Positions 1 through 9,891 of a stretch of 64,000 nt of DNA are shown here, piece after piece (the stretch's first letter is position 1; each line of letters opens with the position of its first letter). Under the pieces are notes generated by a model. It made no database searches. It saw only the letters and a list, made by a program, of their open reading frames with translations, and had not been told where the DNA came from. Position numbers and translations under genes: made by a program. Source of the stretch: an uncultured delta proteobacterium (lineage in GTDB: Bacteria; Myxococcota_A; Polyangia; Haliangiales; Haliangiaceae); NCBI GenBank assembly GCA_963848295.1, contig CAWKDB010000010.1, forward strand, positions 1,984,001 to 2,048,000, given 5' to 3'.

Positions 1-1160
1 CGCGCGAGCTCCTCGGTGCCGGCGTTGCCTCCGTACTGCTCGCGCATCGTCTCGCGGTTATCGAGCGAGTCGCTATGTTGCTTGTCGTAGAGCTCGACTT
101 GAAGGCGATGCTCGAGATCGGGCCGGCGCTCCGGCTTGACGCCGTACTCGCGCACGTTGTCGATCTTCAGCTCCATCGCGTTCAGATCGTCGTGAGCGAG
201 CTCGCGTTCGATCTCCTCGAGCGGCCTCTCGTCGCCCTCGGCCTTCGCGTTCAGTGCATCGTTCTGGAACTTGGCGAGCTCGGGCGCCTCGAGCATGTCC
301 TTGCCGTACTTGGCCTTGAACTCGGCTTCGTCGAACATCAGACCCTTGTTCGACTTGATCCCTTCGAGCACGGCGACGCGATCCTTGTCGCTGTCCGCGC
401 GGTGATACTCCGTCGCCGTGCTGAACTTGCCTTCGCTCCACAGCTCGGTGGTGCCGATCTCGTTGTCCGCTGCCTCTGCCTTGCGCTTCTCGCGGTCGTG
501 ATCTCGCGTGACGGCGAGCTGTTCCTCTACGAAGGCGTTGTCGCTGTGCCTATCGGTCTCGACGTACGACGCGTAGTGCGCGGCGAGCTGCTGGTCGACG
601 CCATGCTCGTCGACCTTCGTGGTGTCGCGCCCGGTGAGGATAGCCACCCCGCGTTGCTCGCTTGCATCGAGCTCGGTCGCCTTCGCGGCCAGGGCTTGTT
701 TCTCGGCCAGCGCGGCCGCTCGCTTCTGGGGATCGGTGCTCGACAGGTCCGGACTCGTGAGCGCGGTCTCGATCTCCTTCTGGTCGTTTTCGCGCATGCC
801 CTCGCGCAACGCGTAGGCGCGATCTTCGGCCCGTTCGCCGCGCAACAGCGCCGCGACCCGCATGTCGGTCGTATCGCCATCGTTGAACCGGTCCTTCAGT
901 AGCTCGTCGAACGTCTCGCCGCCCGTCGCGGCAGCTTGCCGGTCCCACGCGGTCCGAGCCGCTTTGATCTCCTCGGGCGGCATCTGCTCGAGCTCGCGGA
1001 GCACGTTGCTCGCCTTGCGGACGTCGTAGTTGTGGAGGCTCTGCGCGTCGATCTGCCCGTAGTCGCCGGTCTTCATACCGTCGCCGCGCTTCTTCAGCAT
1101 GTTCGCGATGTGAATGCCTTCGGCCGCCGCGCGGTCTCCGGCCGACAGCTTCAAGATCTC
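1..1160. repeat. Direct repeat, copy 1, of the middle of the polymorphic toxin gene (copy 2 = 5188..6347); runs off the left edge of the window
   Basis: Offset 5187 nt. ORF translations 73..441/5260..5628 and 527..880/5714..6067 are identical. One mismatch seen (1143 C vs 6330 T). The copies diverge after ...TCAAGATCTC. Confidence 0.97.
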
Positions 1161-1199
1161 CTCGCGGTTGTCCTCGGAGACTACGACCCCGCCCTGCAT
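1..1199 (-). CDS. Partial chimeric ORF: MQGGVVVSEDNRE fused in frame to the duplicated toxin middle (residues ~365-750 of the 1119-aa protein); open at the window edge
   Basis: ATG at 1199 is in the same frame as the toxin copy and reads ...EEILKLSAGDRAAAEGIHIANMLKK... with no stop down to position 1. Confidence 0.55.
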   Translation of the reverse strand, partial: MQGGVVVSEDNREEILKLSAGDRAAAEGIHIANMLKKRGDGMKTGDYGQIDAQSLHNYDVRKASNVLRELEQMPPEEIKAARTAWDRQAAATGGETFDELLKDRFNDGDTTDMRVAALLRGERAEDRAYALREGMRENDQKEIETALTSPDLSSTDPQKRAAALAEKQALAAKATELDASEQRGVAILTGRDTTKVDEHGVDQQLAAHYASYVETDRHSDNAFVEEQLAVTRDHDREKRKAEAADNEIGTTELWSEGKFSTATEYHRADSDKDRVAVLEGIKSNKGLMFDEAEFKAKYGKDMLEAPELAKFQNDALNAKAEGDERPLEEIERELAHDDLNAMELKIDNVREYGVKPERRPDLEHRLQVELYDKQHSDSLDNRETMREQYGGNAGTEELA

Positions 1200-1329
1200 C
1201 GCCCCGCACCCAATCGAGCGCGAGCGCCTTTGCGCCGCGCTGCCAGACCGTGCGGTCTGTCGCCTCCGTCGCGACCGGCACCGCTGACGACTCCACGTTC
1301 GCGTCTCGGATCAGCAGCGCGACGCTCAT
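1161..1329 (-). pseudogene. 5' part of a small immunity-like gene, frameshifted and interrupted by the duplication junction
   Basis: MSVALLIRDANVESSAVPVATEATDRTVWQRGAKALALDWV, then a 1-nt shift into AMQGGVVVSEDNREEIL. Lies in the toxin/immunity array. Family resemblance is from memory only. Confidence 0.4.
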
Positions 1330-1446
1330 CCCGCCGAACCGACCTGACGCTGCTCGATCATCGTCGGTGTGAGCACACGGATCCTCCAGAATTGTTTCGC
1401 TCCAACGTCTGGACCCGCTGCCACGAGGTTGCGACGCTGATCGCGA

Positions 1447-2763
1447 TCATGCGTCCTGGTGCAGCTCGAGTATCGGCGTGGTCGCGCCCGGAGGCATGCG
1501 AGCGAGCTTCGGCTCGAGCATGCAGATTATCGAGGATGCGATGACGTCTATCGCACCGTAGGCCTCGTCATCTTCACCGACGCGAATCCGATCCCACACG
1601 CCGTCCGCTTCGCGGCCGAGCTCGAGCAATGAGGTTCCAGATAGTCTCGGGCCGATCGGAGCCGAGTGCGGAAAGCCCCCCGCCGCGAGCGCGGCTAATG
1701 CGCGAGCGAACGTACCGATGACCAACGTGCCGTGCCACATACGCCGTGTACGATGCTCGTAACTCGCCTCGAATCGGTCATCGACATGGAGCAGGAGCTC
1801 GATCCTGCCGGAGTATGGGTTGTGTGGATTTCCATGGCAGTACGAGATCTGCGTGACGTTCATCGTTGCTTCGCGTCGCGCCGTGTCGACCAATCGGTCC
1901 GGGCCAGCCGTTCCCAGCGCCGGAACCAAGTCGCCGGCGACCGCCCCGGCGATCCGAATGATATCCCGATATCGACTGCTCGCCATCGGCGCGTCGAGTT
2001 GGCCTCGCGCACCATCACGCGTGCACGCGATCGCAATGACGTCTCCCTCATGCGGCGCCGCAGGTGCCGGAAAGCCGGCGAGCTCCATCGCGCCGACTGC
2101 GCGCTCCCACGTTCCTGCGACGAGGGTCCCACGCCAAACTTTGTCATCGCAGCGCAGCTCGAATGCGCCGCGCGTGAACGAAACGCTCGCGACCGGACCA
2201 CGCGTCTCGATCCTCGTGGTGCGCGCGAGCTCGGTCTCACTCGCGCGATCGGCGCCAGTCTCGCGCATGGCAGCGTCGAGTCGCTTCCAATCGATTCCAT
2301 CTTCGACCGGATGATCAAGCGACGATGCAGGCTTCGGCCGACCGACGGCGTTAGGCAAATACACGGTGAAGAACTGACTGTAGGCGACGCTGCGCACCAT
2401 TGTGGGTTGCGTATCGTCGATCACGAGCTGATATAGGTGGCGCAAGGTCGAAGGGGCGCGCGCGGCTCTGTCATATGCAGCCCATGCCAGAACGGCAACC
2501 GCGCGCGTTGCGACATCCGGCTCCTCGCGCATCATCTGCTCAGCGACTTCGCGATAGGCAGAGATCTGCCAATAGAACCCCAGCGTACGAATCGCCGCGG
2601 AGCGGAGCTCAGGATCCTCGTCGTGCAGATACTCGGCGATGACGGGCGCGAGGTTTGTTAGTGACGCCTTGCCAATCGCGATGATCGCGCTGTAGCGATC
2701 CCCCGAGGTCTTCGCGTCGCGTAGCGCGGCGAGCGCGGCCGTTTCGTCCGCCGTCATCGTCAT
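1447..2763 (-). CDS. HEAT-repeat protein, probable immunity protein of the Ntox28-like toxin, fused to two copies of an uncharacterised domain
   Basis: ATG at 2763 overlaps the toxin TGA (ATGA). HEAT motifs LHDEDPELRSAAIRTLG and EPDVATRAVAVLA. The C-terminal half has two WxGTLVxGTxxRAxxAxxxxGFP units. Confidence 0.8.
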   Translation of the reverse strand: MTMTADETAALAALRDAKTSGDRYSAIIAIGKASLTNLAPVIAEYLHDEDPELRSAAIRTLGFYWQISAYREVAEQMMREEPDVATRAVAVLAWAAYDRAARAPSTLRHLYQLVIDDTQPTMVRSVAYSQFFTVYLPNAVGRPKPASSLDHPVEDGIDWKRLDAAMRETGADRASETELARTTRIETRGPVASVSFTRGAFELRCDDKVWRGTLVAGTWERAVGAMELAGFPAPAAPHEGDVIAIACTRDGARGQLDAPMASSRYRDIIRIAGAVAGDLVPALGTAGPDRLVDTARREATMNVTQISYCHGNPHNPYSGRIELLLHVDDRFEASYEHRTRRMWHGTLVIGTFARALAALAAGGFPHSAPIGPRLSGTSLLELGREADGVWDRIRVGEDDEAYGAIDVIASSIICMLEPKLARMPPGATTPILELHQDA

Positions 2764-3443
2764 ATCTTCGACTTGACTGTATCGAGGAACTTGGAATATC
2801 GCGACAGCCAAGCCTGGAGCAGTTCGCGCTCGCCGTAGCCACCCACCGCGGCGTCGACTCGGCCCAGTTCGTCCTTCACGGTCGCGATCGCGTTGAGCAC
2901 ACCTTCGCGAGCGGTCTCAACTTCCGCAACGTGGTCATACACGCGTCCCACCGCATTCGTGATCTCGACTCCTCGCTCCTCCTTGATCACCGCGGCCAGG
3001 TCATCGGGCTTCATGTGATCGCGAACCGCGTTCTCGGCGCGTCGCAAGATGTTCTGCATCGCCTCTGGTAGCGCCGAGAGGTCAGCTTCGCGCGAAATTC
3101 TGAGCACTCGATTGCGCTCGGTCGCGGCTTGCTCGAGGCTGCGCTGCTCGTCACTCGTCAGGGGCTGCGGCAGGGTCTTGCCGGTATTCGAGAGCTGTGA
3201 CTCGGGCAGGCCGAGCGTCTTCGGCCCTCGGGGTTCGGTTCCGGCGACCAGCGTCTCTTGGGGCTCGGCGGCAGCGTTGACGTCGTTGAACTCGGGTGGT
3301 GCAACCGCGACCATCGGCTGCGTGACCTTGCTAGCCGCGGCCTCGCTCCGGCGCGTACTCTCGATGTCGCCGCCGATCTGCTCGATGTGCCGCGGCCTGA
3401 TAGAAGCGGCTTTCTGACCCTCCACAGGGAAGTTGCCCATCAA
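2760..3443 (-). CDS. Orphan toxin C-terminal cassette, Ntox28-like (predicted RNase/tRNase)
   Basis: ENAVRDHMKPDDLAAVIKEERG...GRVYDHVAEVETAREGVLNAI...LSRYSKFLD fits the DH-x3-D / DHxxEV pattern of Ntox28. Preceded by an A/E/P-rich linker and followed by a HEAT gene. Confidence 0.78.
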   Translation of the reverse strand: MMGNFPVEGQKAASIRPRHIEQIGGDIESTRRSEAAASKVTQPMVAVAPPEFNDVNAAAEPQETLVAGTEPRGPKTLGLPESQLSNTGKTLPQPLTSDEQRSLEQAATERNRVLRISREADLSALPEAMQNILRRAENAVRDHMKPDDLAAVIKEERGVEITNAVGRVYDHVAEVETAREGVLNAIATVKDELGRVDAAVGGYGERELLQAWLSRYSKFLDTVKSKI

Positions 3444-3789
3444 GCTGTGGTCAGTGAATACAGCGCGCCCAGGCGAATCGGCGAGATCAACGTATTCGTC
3501 GAACCCGACGAGACTGGGGCAATTGGCGCAACGCGCGGGAATCCTGCGTCACTGACCGCGGCAGTCGCGCGATCAAATGTTCCGCGCACCAACGTTCCGC
3601 GCCAACTCGTTCGCTTCTTGCGATGCTCGTAACTCGCCTCGAATCGATCGTCCGCGTAAAGCCTGAGCTCGAACCTGCGCGAACTCGGTCTGGAGCCGGT
3701 GCTCGAGGTCGGGCCGGCGCTCCGGCTGCACAACCGCGGCCGTATCCGCGGTTCCATCGGCGTGCTGGTTCGTTACGGCTTCGGCTTCG
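3444..3789 (-). pseudogene. Mosaic of gene remnants: a toxin-carrier paralog fragment and a fragment of the immunity-associated domain
   Basis: VQPERRPDLEHRLQTE matches toxin VKPERRPDLEHRLQVE. In another frame, FELRLYADDRFEASYEHRKKRTSWRGTLVRGTFDRA matches IELLLHVDDRFEASYEHRTRRMWHGTLVIGTFARA of 1447..2763. Confidence 0.75.
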
Positions 3790-4083
3790 TCACCGATTCT
3801 CGCCGTCTCGGTCGACTGGGGGCGTTGATTCTGCGTCAACGATTGTCGCCCCATTGAGAAGCGCAAGGGCGAACCCCGGGGCAGCGATCGTCAGTGTGTA
3901 TTCATTCGAAGTCTTAGGTGGGTCCACGAAAGCGACTGTTCGTATGACTATCGGGAGCGAGCCTTCGCGCGTCTGTGCCGTCGCGGCGATCCCGTGGCGG
4001 AGAGCTCCGCTTTCGAGTACTCCAGTTACCGTGTCGACGCCGGCAATTCTGGATACTTGCTTGACAACGAAACGGAGGCTCAT
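3790..4083 (-). CDS. Probable cognate immunity protein (97 aa, predicted beta-rich, EF-Tu domain II-like N-terminus)
   Basis: ATGA overlap with the toxin stop. Small and visibly more AT-rich than the flanks. FVVKQVSRIAGVDTVTGVLESGALRHG. Confidence 0.7.
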   Translation of the reverse strand: MSLRFVVKQVSRIAGVDTVTGVLESGALRHGIAATAQTREGSLPIVIRTVAFVDPPKTSNEYTLTIAAPGFALALLNGATIVDAESTPPVDRDGENR

Positions 4084-7000
4084 CGTGGTGCCTGCTCCTT
4101 CGCGAGTGTCTCTCGTAAGCGCCGCAGTCGCGCGATTGTCTGACGGGTTTCCACCGGCGAAATCCCGTACTGCCTACGGTTGCGAATCAGCTTTTCCGCC
4201 GCCTCGATCTCCATCTCAGTCACGTTGGCGCCGGTCGCCCGCCCGGTGCGATACTGCGCGGTGTGAATGAACTCCTCGAACGTCTCCGAGGCGGTTGGCT
4301 GGGGACGTAGCACCATGGTCTTCGCATTGAGTGTGACGGCACTGGCCTCGCGCGCTTCAAGATATGCTTGGGCTTCCGCATCCTGGGCGAGAACACCGCC
4401 CTGTCGTTCGAAGGCCCGTTTCATCTTTCCGAATCGCTCGGCGTCCATCGCGGGGCCGTCGATCGGCTCGCTCGTCATCCCTGCATCGAGGTCGTAGCCG
4501 CTCTGCGACCGATCTATCGTTGCCTCGACCTCCCACTCGTCCCCCGAGACCTCGGCGGGATCCTCGGGCACGCGGGTCGCTGAACCCTCGAGCGCCGTCT
4601 CGGTCTTCGCCGCGTCGGCCGCCTCGCCCGGCATGCGCGGTGCGCTGTCCGCGAGCTCCGCGTCGCCCGCGACTTCCTGAACGCCTTTATCGACGATCTC
4701 GGCCTTTGCCTCTTGAGTCGCGCCGTGCTCGACGAGCTCGCCTGCGGTCTTCTCGCCGATTTCGACTGCATCACCGCCGATCGCGCCGACCTTGCGCATC
4801 TGGGCGAACCTGGCGACGCCCACGGTCGCGAGATCGACGACGGCGTCGATCGCCAGCAACTTCGTATCGTCGGCCGGGTCGTAGGCTTCGCCCGCGACGG
4901 ACTTCTTGATCGCCATCGTCGCGAGCCCGGACGCGATGTCGATGAGCGCAAACAGCTCCGGCTGCGCCGTTAGTAGCGCGGCGATCTTCGCGATCGTCGC
5001 GAAGATGTGACCGAGGTGTTCGCCGAGCTTGATCTTCTCCTCGCGCTGAACGTCGAGCGTTTGCGCGAGGTTCTGGTCGATCTCGCGGAACTCGGCGTCG
5101 GAGACTCCCGACTTGAGCTCGCGCGGTCCCAGGCCGAACGGATCCGCCGCCGGTCGAAGCATGTCGTCTTGAACGAGCAGCTGCTCGCGCGCGAGCTCCT
5201 CGGTGCCGGCGTTGCCTCCGTACTGCTCGCGCATCGTCTCGCGGTTATCGAGCGAGTCGCTATGTTGCTTGTCGTAGAGCTCGACTTGAAGGCGATGCTC
5301 GAGATCGGGCCGGCGCTCCGGCTTGACGCCGTACTCGCGCACGTTGTCGATCTTCAGCTCCATCGCGTTCAGATCGTCGTGAGCGAGCTCGCGTTCGATC
5401 TCCTCGAGCGGCCTCTCGTCGCCCTCGGCCTTCGCGTTCAGTGCATCGTTCTGGAACTTGGCGAGCTCGGGCGCCTCGAGCATGTCCTTGCCGTACTTGG
5501 CCTTGAACTCGGCTTCGTCGAACATCAGACCCTTGTTCGACTTGATCCCTTCGAGCACGGCGACGCGATCCTTGTCGCTGTCCGCGCGGTGATACTCCGT
5601 CGCCGTGCTGAACTTGCCTTCGCTCCACAGCTCGGTGGTGCCGATCTCGTTGTCCGCTGCCTCTGCCTTGCGCTTCTCGCGGTCGTGATCTCGCGTGACG
5701 GCGAGCTGTTCCTCTACGAAGGCGTTGTCGCTGTGCCTATCGGTCTCGACGTACGACGCGTAGTGCGCGGCGAGCTGCTGGTCGACGCCATGCTCGTCGA
5801 CCTTCGTGGTGTCGCGCCCGGTGAGGATAGCCACCCCGCGTTGCTCGCTTGCATCGAGCTCGGTCGCCTTCGCGGCCAGGGCTTGTTTCTCGGCCAGCGC
5901 GGCCGCTCGCTTCTGGGGATCGGTGCTCGACAGGTCCGGACTCGTGAGCGCGGTCTCGATCTCCTTCTGGTCGTTTTCGCGCATGCCCTCGCGCAACGCG
6001 TAGGCGCGATCTTCGGCCCGTTCGCCGCGCAACAGCGCCGCGACCCGCATGTCGGTCGTATCGCCATCGTTGAACCGGTCCTTCAGTAGCTCGTCGAACG
6101 TCTCGCCGCCCGTCGCGGCAGCTTGCCGGTCCCACGCGGTCCGAGCCGCTTTGATCTCCTCGGGCGGCATCTGCTCGAGCTCGCGGAGCACGTTGCTCGC
6201 CTTGCGGACGTCGTAGTTGTGGAGGCTCTGCGCGTCGATCTGCCCGTAGTCGCCGGTCTTCATACCGTCGCCGCGCTTCTTCAGCATGTTCGCGATGTGA
6301 ATGCCTTCGGCCGCCGCGCGGTCTCCGGCTGACAGCTTCAAGATCTCGTCCCGATCGGCGCCGGGCGCGATTCGGACAGCAGCCCACTCGGGCCCGAGCA
6401 TCCACTGGCGCTGAGCTGCTTCCGCGAGCTGCGCAGGGGTGAGACCGCGTAATACTTCCTTGATCCGCTCGACGTCATCCCCGGCGTTGATCACGCCGAT
6501 CACCGCTGCGTGGACCGGATCGCCGCTGAGCCCGGCAACCGCTTCATCCTCGTTGCCTTTCGAGAGCGACTTGTCGAGCTCCTCGTAGATCGTGTGATCC
6601 CCATGGGTGTTCTTCCGGATCGCCGCGCGGATCATCTCGATCTCTTCGGGCGTGCGTGGGCCGAGTACTCGGGCGATCTTCTGCGCTTGGTCGTCGTCGT
6701 TCGCGTCGTCGGTACGAGTCACCGCGAGGACCTGCTCGGCCCACGCATTCGCCTGGGTGGCGAGTGCCGCGCGCGCGGTGGGGTTCATCTTCTCGAGCGC
6801 ATGCTCGGTCGCGTCGCGGTCGTCCGAGATCATGTCGAGCGCCTGCGCTTGGTCGCGGTTGCCGTGCCAGTCCGCTTTATCGATGAAATCGCGAAGCGAT
6901 ACGCCGGTCATCTGCTGGAACTTCGCCATCATCTTGTGGCGAACCAGCGGGTCATCGACACGATCGAGGACGTTCAGGAACTGCCAACGCGCGGCCTTGT

Positions 7001-7439
7001 GGTCGGTGTCGTCCTTTGCGGACACGAGGGTCGCGGCAAACGTGGTCGCTTGCAGGTCAGCAAGCTGGTCGCGGACCTGAGCCTTCACCTCTTCGTCGTG
7101 CGCGTGCTGCTCGGCCCCGGCGTCGACCGCCGCCTGTCGAGTCGCGGCCGCTACGCCAGGGTGCTCGGCAGCCTTCGCGGCGCTCGCCTGAATGACCTGC
7201 TGGACGTAGCCATTACCGAGTGAGCGGTGGAGGACCTCGATCATCTGTGCGTGCTCGCGCGGATACTCTTCGAGCAGGTGCGCGACCGTTGGGGGCGCCG
7301 GTCGCCCGCCGGCGATCAGCGCTCGCAGTCGCGCCGCACCGGAGCCCGTTGCGGGGGTCGGCTCGTGTTCGTGCTCCGCAGAGGGCGCGTTCGTCTCGGC
7401 ACGTTGCCCCGCGGAATGATCAGCACCGACCCCAGCCAC
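4080..7439 (-). CDS. Polymorphic toxin, 1119 aa: N-terminal LHxSxGNxxVQxVI module, annexin-like repeats, hydrophobic hairpin, acidic linker, C-terminal zincin-like (Tox-MPTase-like) tip
   Basis: Long ORF with TAGATT 8 nt before the GTG. Tip reads KRAFERQGG...TLNAKTMVLRPQPTASETFEEFIHTAQYRTG...EIEAAEKLIRN. Followed by a small coupled gene and an orphan toxin/immunity pair. Confidence 0.82.
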   Translation of the reverse strand: MAGVGADHSAGQRAETNAPSAEHEHEPTPATGSGAARLRALIAGGRPAPPTVAHLLEEYPREHAQMIEVLHRSLGNGYVQQVIQASAAKAAEHPGVAAATRQAAVDAGAEQHAHDEEVKAQVRDQLADLQATTFAATLVSAKDDTDHKAARWQFLNVLDRVDDPLVRHKMMAKFQQMTGVSLRDFIDKADWHGNRDQAQALDMISDDRDATEHALEKMNPTARAALATQANAWAEQVLAVTRTDDANDDDQAQKIARVLGPRTPEEIEMIRAAIRKNTHGDHTIYEELDKSLSKGNEDEAVAGLSGDPVHAAVIGVINAGDDVERIKEVLRGLTPAQLAEAAQRQWMLGPEWAAVRIAPGADRDEILKLSAGDRAAAEGIHIANMLKKRGDGMKTGDYGQIDAQSLHNYDVRKASNVLRELEQMPPEEIKAARTAWDRQAAATGGETFDELLKDRFNDGDTTDMRVAALLRGERAEDRAYALREGMRENDQKEIETALTSPDLSSTDPQKRAAALAEKQALAAKATELDASEQRGVAILTGRDTTKVDEHGVDQQLAAHYASYVETDRHSDNAFVEEQLAVTRDHDREKRKAEAADNEIGTTELWSEGKFSTATEYHRADSDKDRVAVLEGIKSNKGLMFDEAEFKAKYGKDMLEAPELAKFQNDALNAKAEGDERPLEEIERELAHDDLNAMELKIDNVREYGVKPERRPDLEHRLQVELYDKQHSDSLDNRETMREQYGGNAGTEELAREQLLVQDDMLRPAADPFGLGPRELKSGVSDAEFREIDQNLAQTLDVQREEKIKLGEHLGHIFATIAKIAALLTAQPELFALIDIASGLATMAIKKSVAGEAYDPADDTKLLAIDAVVDLATVGVARFAQMRKVGAIGGDAVEIGEKTAGELVEHGATQEAKAEIVDKGVQEVAGDAELADSAPRMPGEAADAAKTETALEGSATRVPEDPAEVSGDEWEVEATIDRSQSGYDLDAGMTSEPIDGPAMDAERFGKMKRAFERQGGVLAQDAEAQAYLEAREASAVTLNAKTMVLRPQPTASETFEEFIHTAQYRTGRATGANVTEMEIEAAEKLIRNRRQYGISPVETRQTIARLRRLRETLAKEQAPR
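5188..6347. repeat. Direct repeat, copy 2 (inside the toxin gene)
   Basis: Matches 1..1160 with one observed mismatch. Confidence 0.97.
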
Positions 7440-7607: not shown

Positions 7608-9434
7608 TCAGCGCGGCGCGCGCAGCAGGTTGCGCTCGGCGTGCGCGAGCACATCGATCATCTGATCGAGCATCGGCTCGTTCGCCGCGTGCGTGGTCGC
7701 GACCGTGACGTCCTTCGCGAACAACGCGACCATGTAGCGCAGGCGGGCACGCGGCTCGGCCGCGAGCGCGCGGTAGTCGGCGTGACCGATGTTGACGCGC
7801 CAGCTGCCCGATGACATCCGACTGCGCCAGCCGCTCGCCGGTTCGTCGACGAGCACCGGCTCGGGAATGCCGGCGCCCGGGCCGCCGATCGGAGGGCCGT
7901 CGACCACGTCGACCTCGGCGGTGGTCGATGCCGAGCCGCCGTTCGCCTCGGCGACGACGGTGATCGCGTAGAAGCCGCGGTCGGCGAGCTCGGCGAGCGC
8001 GATCGTGCGCGCGCTGCCCTCGCCGTCCATCGACAGCAATGGCGAGCTCGCCGACCACGTCGTCGCCGCCGCGATCGCCTGGCCGTTGAGGTCGGTGACG
8101 ATCGCGCGCACGCGGCGCGCACCTCCGGGCCACAAGCGGATCGGATCGGGCGACAGTCGAACGTGCGCGGCCGGGCCGGGAGGCAACAACTGCGGCTCGT
8201 GCGCGGGCTCGTCGCTTGGCGCGGGCGTCTCTCCGGTCGTGCTCGCGGCGGGGACCGAAGCGCCGGTCGCGAGCGGATCGATCGCGCGCTCGCCGTCGGG
8301 TCCGCCGCGCCCGACGATCGGCGACGGCATCTCGAGGTGAGGTAAGCGATCGCGTAGCCCGCGCAGCGCGCGGCGCAGCTCGGATAGCAGCTGGCGCTCC
8401 GACGCGGCGTGGCGCTGCTCGAGCTGGCGGTCGAGCGCGGCCTGCGCGTACGGCTCGATCCGGGCGAGCGCGGTGACGAACGCCGCCGCGGCCGCATCTG
8501 GGGTGACGCCGCGCCGCGAGCCCGGTGGCACCGCGAAGCCCGCGAACTCGATCGTGCCGGCGAGCGCGGGATCGGTCCACGGTGCGTGGTCGAGCCCGAG
8601 CGCGGCGAGCTCGCCGAGCCGATCGGCGACGACCGTGCCTCCGCAGGTCAGCTCGACGCCGGCCGCGCCGACGCTCGCGTGATACAGCTCGATGACGATC
8701 GGCGAACAGCCGGGCACCTCGACCTGCGCGGGTACATCGAGCCGAACGCCATCGAACCGCCGCGGCACGACCGGGATGCGATCGACGAGCACCCCGCGCG
8801 AATCGAGCTCGCGCACCTCGACCGCGGCGCCGCTCGACAGCAACGGGCCGCGCAGCTCGGCGCCGAGATAGTCGGCGAGCCGACGCGTCGTCAGCGGGCG
8901 CAGCGCCGCGGCGTGGAGCTCGCCGACCACGATCTCGGTGAACGTCGCGGGCGCGTCGATCGTGGGCGGCGCGGGCACGATCTCGGCGCGCGGCTCGTCC
9001 TCGACCAGGCGGAGCAGCCAGGGCGCCGACCCGGCGACCCGCGAGCGGATGTCCATGCGATGGCCGATCGACCAGAACCCGAGCAGCCCGATGCCGTACT
9101 GGCCCGCGACGATCTGCTCGTGGCGCTCGCGCGGCGACAGGTTGCGTTTGTGCGAGCGCCCGATGTGCGTCGCGATGTGGCGAAGCGCGGTCTCGCGGTC
9201 CTCGTCGGGGCGTATCCCGTCGCCGTCGTCGCGCACGACGAGCGTCGCCCGCCGGCCGCGCCGCCGCCGCTCGATCACGATCGCGCGCGCATTCGCGTCG
9301 ATCGCGTTCTGCACGAGCTCGGCGACCGCCTTGCGCGGATCGCTCTGGCTGCGCGCGAGCCAGCGGATCAGATCGAACGCGTCGGCCGGCTGCAGCCGCA
9401 CGCGGCTCGCATCACGCTTCGATCGGATCGGCAC
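7608..9434 (-). CDS. GHKL (HSP90/MORC-like) ATPase with a C-terminal Ig-like insert
   Basis: Motifs AELVQNAIDANA, VRDDGDGI and GQYGIGLLGFWSIG; C-terminal WRVNIGHADY. Start placed at GTG 9434 (TACAAC 7 nt upstream). Confidence 0.8.
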   Translation of the reverse strand: MPIRSKRDASRVRLQPADAFDLIRWLARSQSDPRKAVAELVQNAIDANARAIVIERRRRGRRATLVVRDDGDGIRPDEDRETALRHIATHIGRSHKRNLSPRERHEQIVAGQYGIGLLGFWSIGHRMDIRSRVAGSAPWLLRLVEDEPRAEIVPAPPTIDAPATFTEIVVGELHAAALRPLTTRRLADYLGAELRGPLLSSGAAVEVRELDSRGVLVDRIPVVPRRFDGVRLDVPAQVEVPGCSPIVIELYHASVGAAGVELTCGGTVVADRLGELAALGLDHAPWTDPALAGTIEFAGFAVPPGSRRGVTPDAAAAAFVTALARIEPYAQAALDRQLEQRHAASERQLLSELRRALRGLRDRLPHLEMPSPIVGRGGPDGERAIDPLATGASVPAASTTGETPAPSDEPAHEPQLLPPGPAAHVRLSPDPIRLWPGGARRVRAIVTDLNGQAIAAATTWSASSPLLSMDGEGSARTIALAELADRGFYAITVVAEANGGSASTTAEVDVVDGPPIGGPGAGIPEPVLVDEPASGWRSRMSSGSWRVNIGHADYRALAAEPRARLRYMVALFAKDVTVATTHAANEPMLDQMIDVLAHAERNLLRAPR

Positions 9435-9524
9435 GCCATCGGTTGTAGCGCGCGGCTCTGACGAGCGTGGTGCGGCCTCCGGATTGGGTCCGTGCGGCTC
9501 ACGCGTGTGCTCGCCGATGAGGGT

Positions 9525-9540
9525 TGGCACGCCCGCTGCT
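9525..9540 (+). promoter_or_regulatory. Sigma54-like -24/-12 promoter
   Basis: TGGCACGCCCGCTGCT (GG-N10-GC), 12 nt before ATG 9553. Confidence 0.55.
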
Positions 9541-9552
9541 CCTCCGTACACC

Positions 9553-9891
9553 ATGCGCACCTGTCTCTTCGTTGTAACGTTCGCCGTGATCGCGGCATGC
9601 ACCAGCAGCTACCAGCCGCCGGATCTGTCGGGCTCGGTCGCGTGCGGGACCATGACATGCGGCGACGGTCAGCTGTGCATCGACTCGACGCGCGACGGCA
9701 GCGAGGGCTCGTCGAACGAGATCGAAACGTTCAGCTGCGCGACGCCACCCGCGGACTGCCAGCTCCTTGAATGCAGCTACGAATGCCCGCACGAGGGCGT
9801 GAGCAATTGCTGTCCGCCGTGCATCGTGGGTCTGTGCGGCGGCATCCCGGGCTATGACGGCAGCCGGAACGTCAGCTGCGTCGGCTTCTGA
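9553..9891 (+). CDS. Small Cys-rich lipoprotein
   Basis: MRTCLFVVTFAVIAAC lipobox; many Cys. Confidence 0.75.
   Translation: MRTCLFVVTFAVIAACTSSYQPPDLSGSVACGTMTCGDGQLCIDSTRDGSEGSSNEIETFSCATPPADCQLLECSYECPHEGVSNCCPPCIVGLCGGIPGYDGSRNVSCVGF

Follow-up and report, generated by a model that had tools for sequence, protein, structure and literature searches.

What carries the toxin domains encoded at the start of a 64,000-nucleotide stretch from an uncultured delta proteobacterium, and by which route could they reach another cell? This stretch, hereafter the window, corresponds to positions 1,984,001 to 2,048,000 of contig CAWKDB010000010.1 (GenBank assembly GCA_963848295.1; contig C10 of the source genome, G000), and the 12 kb that precede its first base were also analysed (L001). 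The list of open reading frames (ORFs) and their translations places the carrier locus on the minus strand, in the first 7.4 kb of the window, from where it extends past the window start. This is a genuine polymorphic toxin locus, and its carrier family is absent from Pfam. Our overall reading, to which we give a probability of roughly 0.7, is that of a polymorphic toxin-immunity locus in which a soluble annexin-like carrier delivers a swappable C-terminal toxin into competitors, most likely by means of an extracellular contractile injection system (eCIS), a route that we infer.

The locus opens with carrier 1, a protein of 1119 amino acids (aa) called as an ORF from a GTG start at 7439 (7439..4080, minus strand, as are all features listed here with window coordinates). 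It is composed of an N-terminal module of 65 aa (residues 24-88, 7176..7370), an array of annexin-like repeats (residues ~129-609, 5613..7055), conserved hydrophobic helices that end in GEAYDPADD (residues ~805-880, 4800..5027) and a Tox-MPTase4-like C-terminal toxin domain, tip A (residues 986-1119, 4083..4484). The predicted immunity gene of tip A, immA (97 aa, 4083..3790), follows immediately, its own ATG and the stop codon of carrier 1 overlapping as ATGA. The next 350 bases (3440..3789) are remnants, which hold a 175-nt fragment (3501-3675) with 100% identity to immB2, a gene located before the window, and a 47-nt piece of carrier core (3681-3727) with 83% identity. An orphan tip without attached carrier, tip C (3443..2760), then combines the tail of an HExxH region with an Ntox28 domain, and its stop overlaps, again as ATGA, the start of immC (2763..1447), which encodes a predicted immunity protein of 438 aa made of HEAT repeats. 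Last comes the 5' part of the N-terminally truncated carrier 2 (1..1199), which continues to 1986 bases before the window.

An earlier note on this stretch had listed the 1119-aa protein, the ATGA-coupled 97-aa gene, the remnants, the Ntox28-like tip, the HEAT gene and a second carrier copy, and all of them are present. It had also placed a separate immunity-like fragment between the HEAT gene and the second copy, where none was found; the fragment in question is the piece of immB2 in the remnants. The second copy of the carrier middle exists as described, but the locus does not end at base 1, and the copy is a 1061-aa ORF (L001 13199..10014) with its own tip and two coupled genes. Carrier 2 is devoid of roughly the first 364 residues of carrier 1, shares residues ~365-950 with it, and then diverges, its part beyond the window consisting of the remaining core, an HExxH region (HELSHQIGLLDEY) and an Ntox28 domain, tip B. 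Coupled to its 3' end by ATGA is immB1, of the HEAT_2 family (L001 10017..9115), to which immB2 (139 aa, L001 9118..8699) is coupled in the same manner. A coupled downstream ORF thus accompanies all three tips of the locus, the fourth of the ATGA junctions being that between immB1 and immB2, and two orphan cassettes, tip C with immC and carrier 2 with immB1 and immB2, are present downstream of carrier 1.

The homologues of the carrier show what is kept and what is exchanged. A phmmer search of 1.84 billion representative sequences yielded 372 proteins at E ≤ 1e-3 and 58 representative clusters at E ≤ 1e-30, and a word-indexed search returned 13 carrier homologues besides the two records of the window itself. 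The matches belong to two classes: proteins of 600-2192 aa that align only to carrier residues ~120-950, and many unrelated proteins whose own C-termini align only to residues ~997-1114. Carrier homologues come from Kofleriaceae-type metagenome-assembled genomes (MAGs); their core (~120-950) is kept while both ends vary, and in the alignments conservation ends at the hydrophobic helices and GEAYDPADD, before the variable region. The C-termini differ from one homologue to another, Tox-GHH (P0016) and Ntox28 (P0017) being each found once among 30 scanned proteins, and the tips of the family include Tox-GHH, Ntox28, the HExxH region together with other tips, and the Tox-MPTase4-like tip A.

Eleven related loci were recovered from seven MAGs titled Kofleriaceae or Deltaproteobacteria. 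Wherever the carrier 3' end is intact (7/7 loci), an ORF of 108-338 aa directly adjoins it, five of them overlapping the carrier by 4 nt; these abutting ORFs present a low GC content at third codon positions (GC3) and are mostly without Pfam family, two of them being of HEAT type. One related locus (L051) harbors an orphan of its own, formed of carrier residues 725-927, a different tip and a coupled ORF. The check that the earlier note had proposed, namely whether the C-termini of homologues vary and are followed by small variable genes, was thus answered positively, and so was its claim of a polymorphic toxin locus with orphan cassettes; we consider the small coupled downstream genes as predicted immunity genes.

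Base composition and distribution point in the same direction. GC3 reaches 0.60-0.77 in tips and immunity genes (0.60 in immA), 0.84 in the carrier core and 0.89 in the flanking gene, and the carrier core was found in none of the five closest genomes examined. Variable tips, abutting ORFs, orphans, this GC3 contrast and the failure to find the core in the closest genomes together form the signature of a mobile, recombining toxin-immunity system. A comparison of the island borders with congeners was uninformative because their genomes are too diverged, the flanking transporter being 57-64% identical and the HATPase gene absent or partly matched. The latter gene, directly upstream of carrier 1 after a gap of 168 nt, encodes a 664-aa HATPase_c_3 protein (window 7608-9602, minus strand, GC3 0.89), whose connection to the toxin locus is not evident.

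The carrier itself escapes the usual classification. A Pfam scan of carrier 1 gave no family above cut-off, and no match to RHS, haemagglutinin/FHA, two-partner secretion (TPS), PAAR, VgrG, MIX, LXG, WXG or Hint families, in agreement with the absence of RHS/YD, haemagglutinin, PAAR, VgrG, LXG and Hint motifs reported from the letters alone. More specifically, RHS_repeat matched neither carrier 1 (E ≤ 0.1) nor carrier 2 (E ≤ 0.01), and Pfam detected no FHA/haemagglutinin repeats or TPS domain in either of them. A sequence search of the PDB with the carrier profile retrieved nothing significant, and the best score of an ESM Atlas search with the carrier core (0.78) was uninformative. No published description of this multi-repeat carrier family was found in the literature searched, whose supplementary tables might list homologues. 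To call it an unrecognised carrier type, as had been done, is nevertheless too strong: this kind of system is already known, and annexin domains on toxins of this lineage were published in 2012 and 2014 (Zhang et al. 2012, PMC3482391; Kodavali et al. 2014, PMC3894181). What is new is the family with its conserved multi-repeat core of ~800 aa, its immunity and orphan organisation resembling that of Rhs and contact-dependent inhibition (CDI) loci, and its interchangeable N-terminal tags.

The annexin-like character of the core comes from structure prediction. The AlphaFold2 model of carrier 1, based on an alignment of 51 sequences, has a mean predicted local distance difference test score (pLDDT) of 81 and a predicted TM-score of 0.72; residues 34-883 are helical, with pLDDT mostly above 90, and residues 884-1020 form a disordered, acidic linker. 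Foldseek matched this model to 79 PDB entries at E ≤ 1e-3, every listed one being an annexin or an annexin-A2 fusion construct, with annexin VI as best match (E 2.5e-6, 765 columns). VIA-align superposed carrier residues 227-306 on single annexin repeats with a root-mean-square deviation of 1.6-2.0 Å over 70-74 residues (Z 6-7.6) and aligned annexin VI across residues 135-609, and the core segments 245-320, 318-385 and 405-480 are mutually similar (hhalign probability 85-92%). The annexin-like repeats suspected from the sequence are thus recovered in the model. Beyond them, the hydrophobic helices are long (781-824, 827-852 and 855-883) and moderately hydrophobic, with Kyte-Doolittle maxima of 1.4-1.7 in three segments of residues ~805-880.

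The tips, for their part, are shared with other toxin systems. The domain of tip A occurs at the C-termini of unrelated proteins, with 36-80% identity over ~115 residues. Thirty of these bearers were scanned and carried RHS (n = 3), PT-TG (n = 2), Phage_Mu_F (n = 4), Phage_min_cap2 (n = 4), VG15 (n = 1) or TIG (n = 1), whereas 14 had no family and one only a sub-threshold Tox-MPTase4. The motifs P[TS].S.VFEE[FL]IH..Q.R.G and EIEA..KLI are kept throughout this tip family, with an invariant E-E-x-x-H-x-x-Q and a downstream E. Tip A aligns to Tox-MPTase4 (PF15640) over nearly its full length with an E-value of 0.0053 and 17.1 bits, and five of its relatives obtain 22-24 bits, the cut-off being 25. 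Its own AlphaFold2 model, computed from a separate alignment, is a small alpha/beta domain (pLDDT 96.8). The SPRTN protease, at rank 4 of the Foldseek matches of tip A, was rejected as a structural match (E 1.2, not significant).

Tips B and C both exceed the Ntox28 (PF15605) cut-off of 25 bits, tip C with 28.6 bits (E 1.6e-6) and tip B with 27.9 bits (E 2.6e-6). Ntox28 is a predicted RNase with the signature [DN]HxxE, according to its published description (PMC3482391); tip C fits it with DHVAE, and tip B, which reads QHVAE, departs at the first position. The two tips are 60% identical at the protein level, tip C aligning to residues 818-1060 of carrier 2, and tip B weakly matches the CdiA-CT tRNA nuclease 5j5v_B over a GG..H..E motif (E 0.071), which is the sole connection to CdiA toxins that was detected.

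Regarding the immunity genes, immA has no Pfam family and only two homologues among 5.8 billion proteins (84% and 76% identity); a metagenome scan with immA led to a single locus, where the match (38%) falls within a 780-aa ORF that is unrelated and offers no tip-immunity context. HEAT_2 was identified in immC (E 4.6e-8) and immB1 (E 1.1e-10), and immC is a fusion of an immB1-like part (71% identity) and an immB2-like part that forms its C-terminal third (62%).

The two carriers are joined by a nearly perfect repeat, window 4589-6347 recurring at -598..1160 with one mismatch in ~1759 nt (~1.76 kb), so that window 1-1160 repeats 5188-6347; cassettes B and C (tip plus immunity) are 72% identical at the DNA level. 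The DNA is present as short contigs, at a depth of 2-5, in three soil-metagenome DNA runs of one study; no RNA run was listed for it. Such short-read contigs bridge the repeat boundary at window 1160 with zero mismatches, which indicates that the duplication is not solely a product of this assembly, keeping in mind that these runs may derive from the very sample behind it. Recombination between the two core copies would remove 5187 bp and place tip B behind the complete N-terminus, thereby switching the deployed toxin; the predicted recombinant is a full-length carrier of ~1413 aa ending in tip B, an architecture found intact in the homologue P0003. The joint expected from this deletion was not seen among the short contigs, whose depth of 2-5 is unable to reveal a rare form. 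Contigs of two of the soil runs follow the carrier repeat as far as L001 11553-11574 (window about -447 to -426) and then continue into unlike sequence; they may stem from a related strain whose core or tip junction is different.

The N-terminal module, of consensus G.G..AL..L.A.G.P.P..V..L....P.DRDAM...LH..LGN.YVQQV, obeys another logic. It heads ten ORFs of this genome, i.e., carrier 1 and nine unrelated ones of 130-1594 aa, with one additional weak match, and these genes are spread over contigs C10, C4, C9 and C11. Among 301 genomes sampled from the phylum, only the source genome and one congener possess it, as do two of the seven carrier-bearing MAGs. The strict motif appears in 2 of 56 database carrier homologues, and the module was also found in the carriers of four related loci; the other homologues show a short motif of [LM][LM]P[WY][VM]D[HD]D type or different N-termini. 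A strict LLPWMD-like pattern is present at the N-terminus of 10 of the 56, and about a dozen more show looser versions by eye, such as MLAYVDHDHD. Since other homologues have different N-termini, the module must be excluded from the core of the family: it is a swappable, lineage-specific tag, and the proposal of a distinct class built upon it does not hold. When this genome was searched for an LLPWMDD-type motif that might be a second tag, four scattered matches emerged, none N-terminal, which we attribute to chance.

Modelled as a helical domain (pLDDT 83-95), the module may act as an export or loading signal. The neighbourhoods of eight other module genes (96 ORFs) contain no common secretion or chaperone gene. 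One of the module proteins, of 333 aa (L015:7747-8748, minus strand, corresponding to G000:C4:146750-147754), carries, in addition to the N-terminal module, a DSP-PTPase at its C-terminus, of the type named 'polymorphic toxin system' (PF22785, E 1.9e-14); it is effector-like and has no obvious immunity gene. Another, of 1594 aa, is encoded within the window (47192-51973, minus strand) and exhibits the module at residues 61-126, a second partial module-like match at 1406-1464, no Pfam family and long Ala/Gly/Thr-rich repeats.

Delivery by an eCIS is our leading candidate route, inferred and held at somewhat less than even odds. A complete eCIS cluster is encoded on contig C2 (~901-934.5 kb), the carrier being at 1.99 Mb of C10, and includes Pvc16_N, two sheaths, tubes, hub, spike, gp25, baseplate J, an AAA+ ATPase and a DUF4157 protein. 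In one member of the carrier family, P0039, the carrier core is preceded by an eCIS_core/DUF4157 domain (E 4.8e-12). Pvc16_N was detected in all five relatives and in all seven carrier-bearing MAGs, and the sheath VipB/TssC of type VI secretion systems (T6SS) in none of five genomes, including the source genome (85% complete), and in none of the seven MAGs. Moreover, two articles report annexin domains in Haliangium toxins delivered by Photorhabdus virulence cassettes (PVC) and beside eCIS genes (PMC3482391, PMC8213781), and a preprint states that the cargo of one eCIS shares a system-specific N-terminal loading sequence (10.64898/2026.05.27.728243).

The same region of C2 (~901000-934500; L044, L017) contains as unusual accessories three FHA-domain proteins, a PASTA-Tail_P2_I fusion and a pentapeptide-repeat protein, and a Ser/Thr kinase adjoins the AAA+ ATPase and a short DUF4157 protein. 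A BLAST comparison of the ORFs of the eCIS region with the related loci matched only a generic Ser/Thr kinase. Elsewhere in the genome, two giant proteins of 2264 and 2210 aa (G000:C2:477652-484446 and G000:C10:4150706-4157338) harbor two DUF4157/eCIS_core domains each; encoded at a distance from the cluster, they are candidates for eCIS cargo.

Several observations weigh against our reading, some concerning the carrier and its tip and others the route. Pfam Annexin (PF00191) never reaches its 25-bit cut-off, with sub-threshold scores of 16.7-22.2 bits in four homologues and no match at all in carrier 1; the global TM-scores of the carrier model against annexins are low (0.1-0.28); Z-scores of 6-8 fall in the range where, as VIA-align warns, helical repeats commonly score; and the best repeat reads VLGPRTPEE (GPRTPE) at the place of the calcium loop, a degenerate version of the canonical motif GxGTD given by Kodavali et al. 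(PMC3894181). Because of the low TM-scores and this Z range, we limit the fold claim to an annexin-like repeat fold, as modelled, and do not assign the core to the annexin family. Similarly, tip A remains below the Pfam threshold of Tox-MPTase4 and displays E-E-x-x-H where the family signature is HExxH, and, judged by these sequence features, it is a distant relative of this family and not a member; it has no significant PDB match, either by Foldseek (none at E ≤ 1e-3) or by profile sequence search. As for the route, DUF4157 was found in only one of 47 family scans (P0039) and in neither carrier 1 nor carrier 2, and the DUF4157 proteins of the genome are without module. No module gene lies near the eCIS cluster in the genomes examined, none of the ten module matches in G301 and G302 sharing a contig with Pvc16_N. 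The eCIS is present in all relatives, with or without carrier, so that its co-occurrence with the carrier carries no information. Finally, structure prediction gives the module a folded, helical form, unlike the published loading sequences, which are disordered (10.64898/2026.05.27.728243), and most eCIS toxins have no immunity genes according to the published eCIS work consulted.

Could the carrier dispense with an injection machine? In colicins, a disordered N-terminus bearing a short conserved motif is followed by a helical centre and then by the cytotoxic tip, and the immunity gene comes directly downstream. The carrier might likewise be a self-delivering, bacteriocin-like toxin following the logic of colicins and pyocins and released by lysis or by an exporter; its core would bind the envelope or membrane of the target, the helices would translocate the tip, and the [LM][LM]P[WY][VM]D[HD]D motif of the homologues, set in a disordered stretch rich in His and Pro, would act like a Tol/Ton box. 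The order of a disordered N-terminus with short motif, helical centre, cytotoxic tip and adjoining immunity gene is indeed colicin-like, the hydrophobic helices directly precede the tip, the genes are scattered without a secretion-system neighbour, and a Burkholderiales protein combining three annexin domains with Pyocin_S and Colicin D has been reported (PMC3894181). Against this stands the N-terminus of the present carrier, a folded 65-aa module common to nine unrelated proteins, one of which is an effector-like DSP-phosphatase lacking the toxin-immunity layout; such sharing better fits a common export tag than self-delivery. Pfam detected neither Pyocin_S nor any family of colicin translocation domains or lysis genes, whether in the carrier or in the adjacent genes, and P0039 has the eCIS marker DUF4157. 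We regard self-delivery as rather unlikely. A bolder and decidedly doubtful proposal makes of the module the address tag of an undescribed export route of Kofleria-type myxobacteria, serving at least ten effectors per genome; its annexin-repeat carriers would constitute a trafficking class new among polymorphic toxins, attaching to the target membrane and inserting themselves, independently of eCIS, T6SS, type VII secretion, CDI and Rhs shells.

Type III export, by a flagellar or an unrecognised type III secretion (T3SS)-like machine to which the module would target the carrier and the nine other proteins, appears very unlikely. In its favour, two FHIPEP genes are encoded in the genome; within the genus, G000 and G250 have both the module and the full-length FlhA type, and G115 and G290 have neither; and the effector-like phosphatase has the module. 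However, the full-length FHIPEP belongs to a flagellar cluster of ordinary composition, where flagellin, hook, rod and rings are encoded, the second one is isolated, none of 16 neighbouring ORFs scanned matching a T3SS family, and FlhA also exists in at least five genomes without module; the association of FlhA with the module moreover comes from a tiny sample of related genomes. Other or unknown routes take the remainder of our estimate. Scarcely credible, lastly, is the view that the locus is a decaying or selfish cassette array, or an intracellular addiction module of toxin-antitoxin type, with the duplication as an assembly artefact: carrier 2 has indeed lost its N-terminus and remnants are present, but carrier 1 is intact and its fold predicted with high confidence, immA is conserved, separate short-read contigs bridge the repeat junction, and the architecture is conserved in seven other MAGs.

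The flagellar cluster of this genome (G000:C10:3352001-3392000; L060, L061) encodes flagellin, FliD, FlgE/K/L, FlgH/I, FliF/G/I/P/R and FlhA/F, its FlhA type being found only in some congeners; myxobacteria are generally regarded as non-flagellated. The second FHIPEP gene (G000:C10:4726447-4728210; L062 14408-16264), to which the profile aligns in two pieces, has conserved counterparts in most relatives, and its 16 scanned neighbour ORFs contain no flagellar family either.

Returning to delivery of a soluble annexin-like carrier, most likely by an eCIS, the following sequence of events may be proposed. Carrier 1 would be produced together with immA, which would neutralise tip A within the producer, and the N-terminal module would direct export or loading. 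The annexin-like array would then bind the target membrane, the hydrophobic helices helping the tip to cross it, as may be conjectured from the modelled fold and from a suggestion by Zhang et al. (PMC3482391). Where present, the HExxH region upstream of Ntox28 would, judging by its position, be a peptidase that releases the tip. The downstream cassettes would maintain immunity to related toxins and serve as a reserve, from which recombination between the core copies could draw.

The closest known counterparts are found in Haliangium, which belongs to the same order-level lineage as the Kofleria-type myxobacteria of this locus. Its annexin-domain toxins are described as delivered by PVC/eCIS in two articles (Zhang et al. 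2012, PMC3482391; Kodavali et al. 2014, PMC3894181). The toxins of the PVC secretion system of Haliangium ochraceum resemble those of the present locus by annexin-type domains upstream of a variable C-terminal toxin and by the absence of a Sec signal, and the homologue P0039 with its DUF4157 marker adds to this likeness. The published toxins consist of a DUF4157 metallopeptidase with one or two annexin domains and mostly have no immunity gene, whereas the present family combines a multi-repeat core of ~800 aa and hydrophobic helices with coupled genes, orphans and a location distant from the eCIS cluster. The Burkholderiales JOSHI_001 protein also joins several annexin domains to a C-terminal nuclease-type toxin, but possesses in addition a Pyocin_S domain for translocation and a membrane anchor (PMC3894181), features that were not detected in carrier 1.

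By their organisation, Rhs and CdiA loci are similar in several respects: the carrier is conserved, variable tips set in abruptly after a conserved motif, immunity genes are coupled to them and some tips are displaced, the orphan keeping a stretch homologous to the carrier through which it could recombine with the main gene. Switching by recombination between orphan and carrier is reportedly known from work on Salmonella Rhs and CDI orphans. Unlike Rhs and CdiA, the present carrier is all-alpha and annexin-like; neither RHS/YD nor haemagglutinin repeats are present, nor is there a PAAR, a VgrG or a partner for two-partner secretion, and a T6SS sheath gene was likewise not found in the genome. 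MuF, RHS and PT-TG toxins have the tip domain in common with it, on entirely different carriers.

Polymorphic toxins are classed by their carriers and trafficking modules, and to these the present family adds a large, annexin-like, all-alpha carrier that lies beyond the reach of Pfam models and is so far confined to little-studied soil myxobacteria. It joins the immunity and orphan logic of Rhs and CDI loci to an architecture that had previously been tied only loosely to phage-tail-like injectors. Two questions are raised thereby: whether bacterial annexin repeats serve as carriers that take toxins across a target membrane, and which role the tag plays on ten otherwise unrelated proteins. Should the module prove to be a loading signal, it would provide a compact tag for loading chosen proteins.

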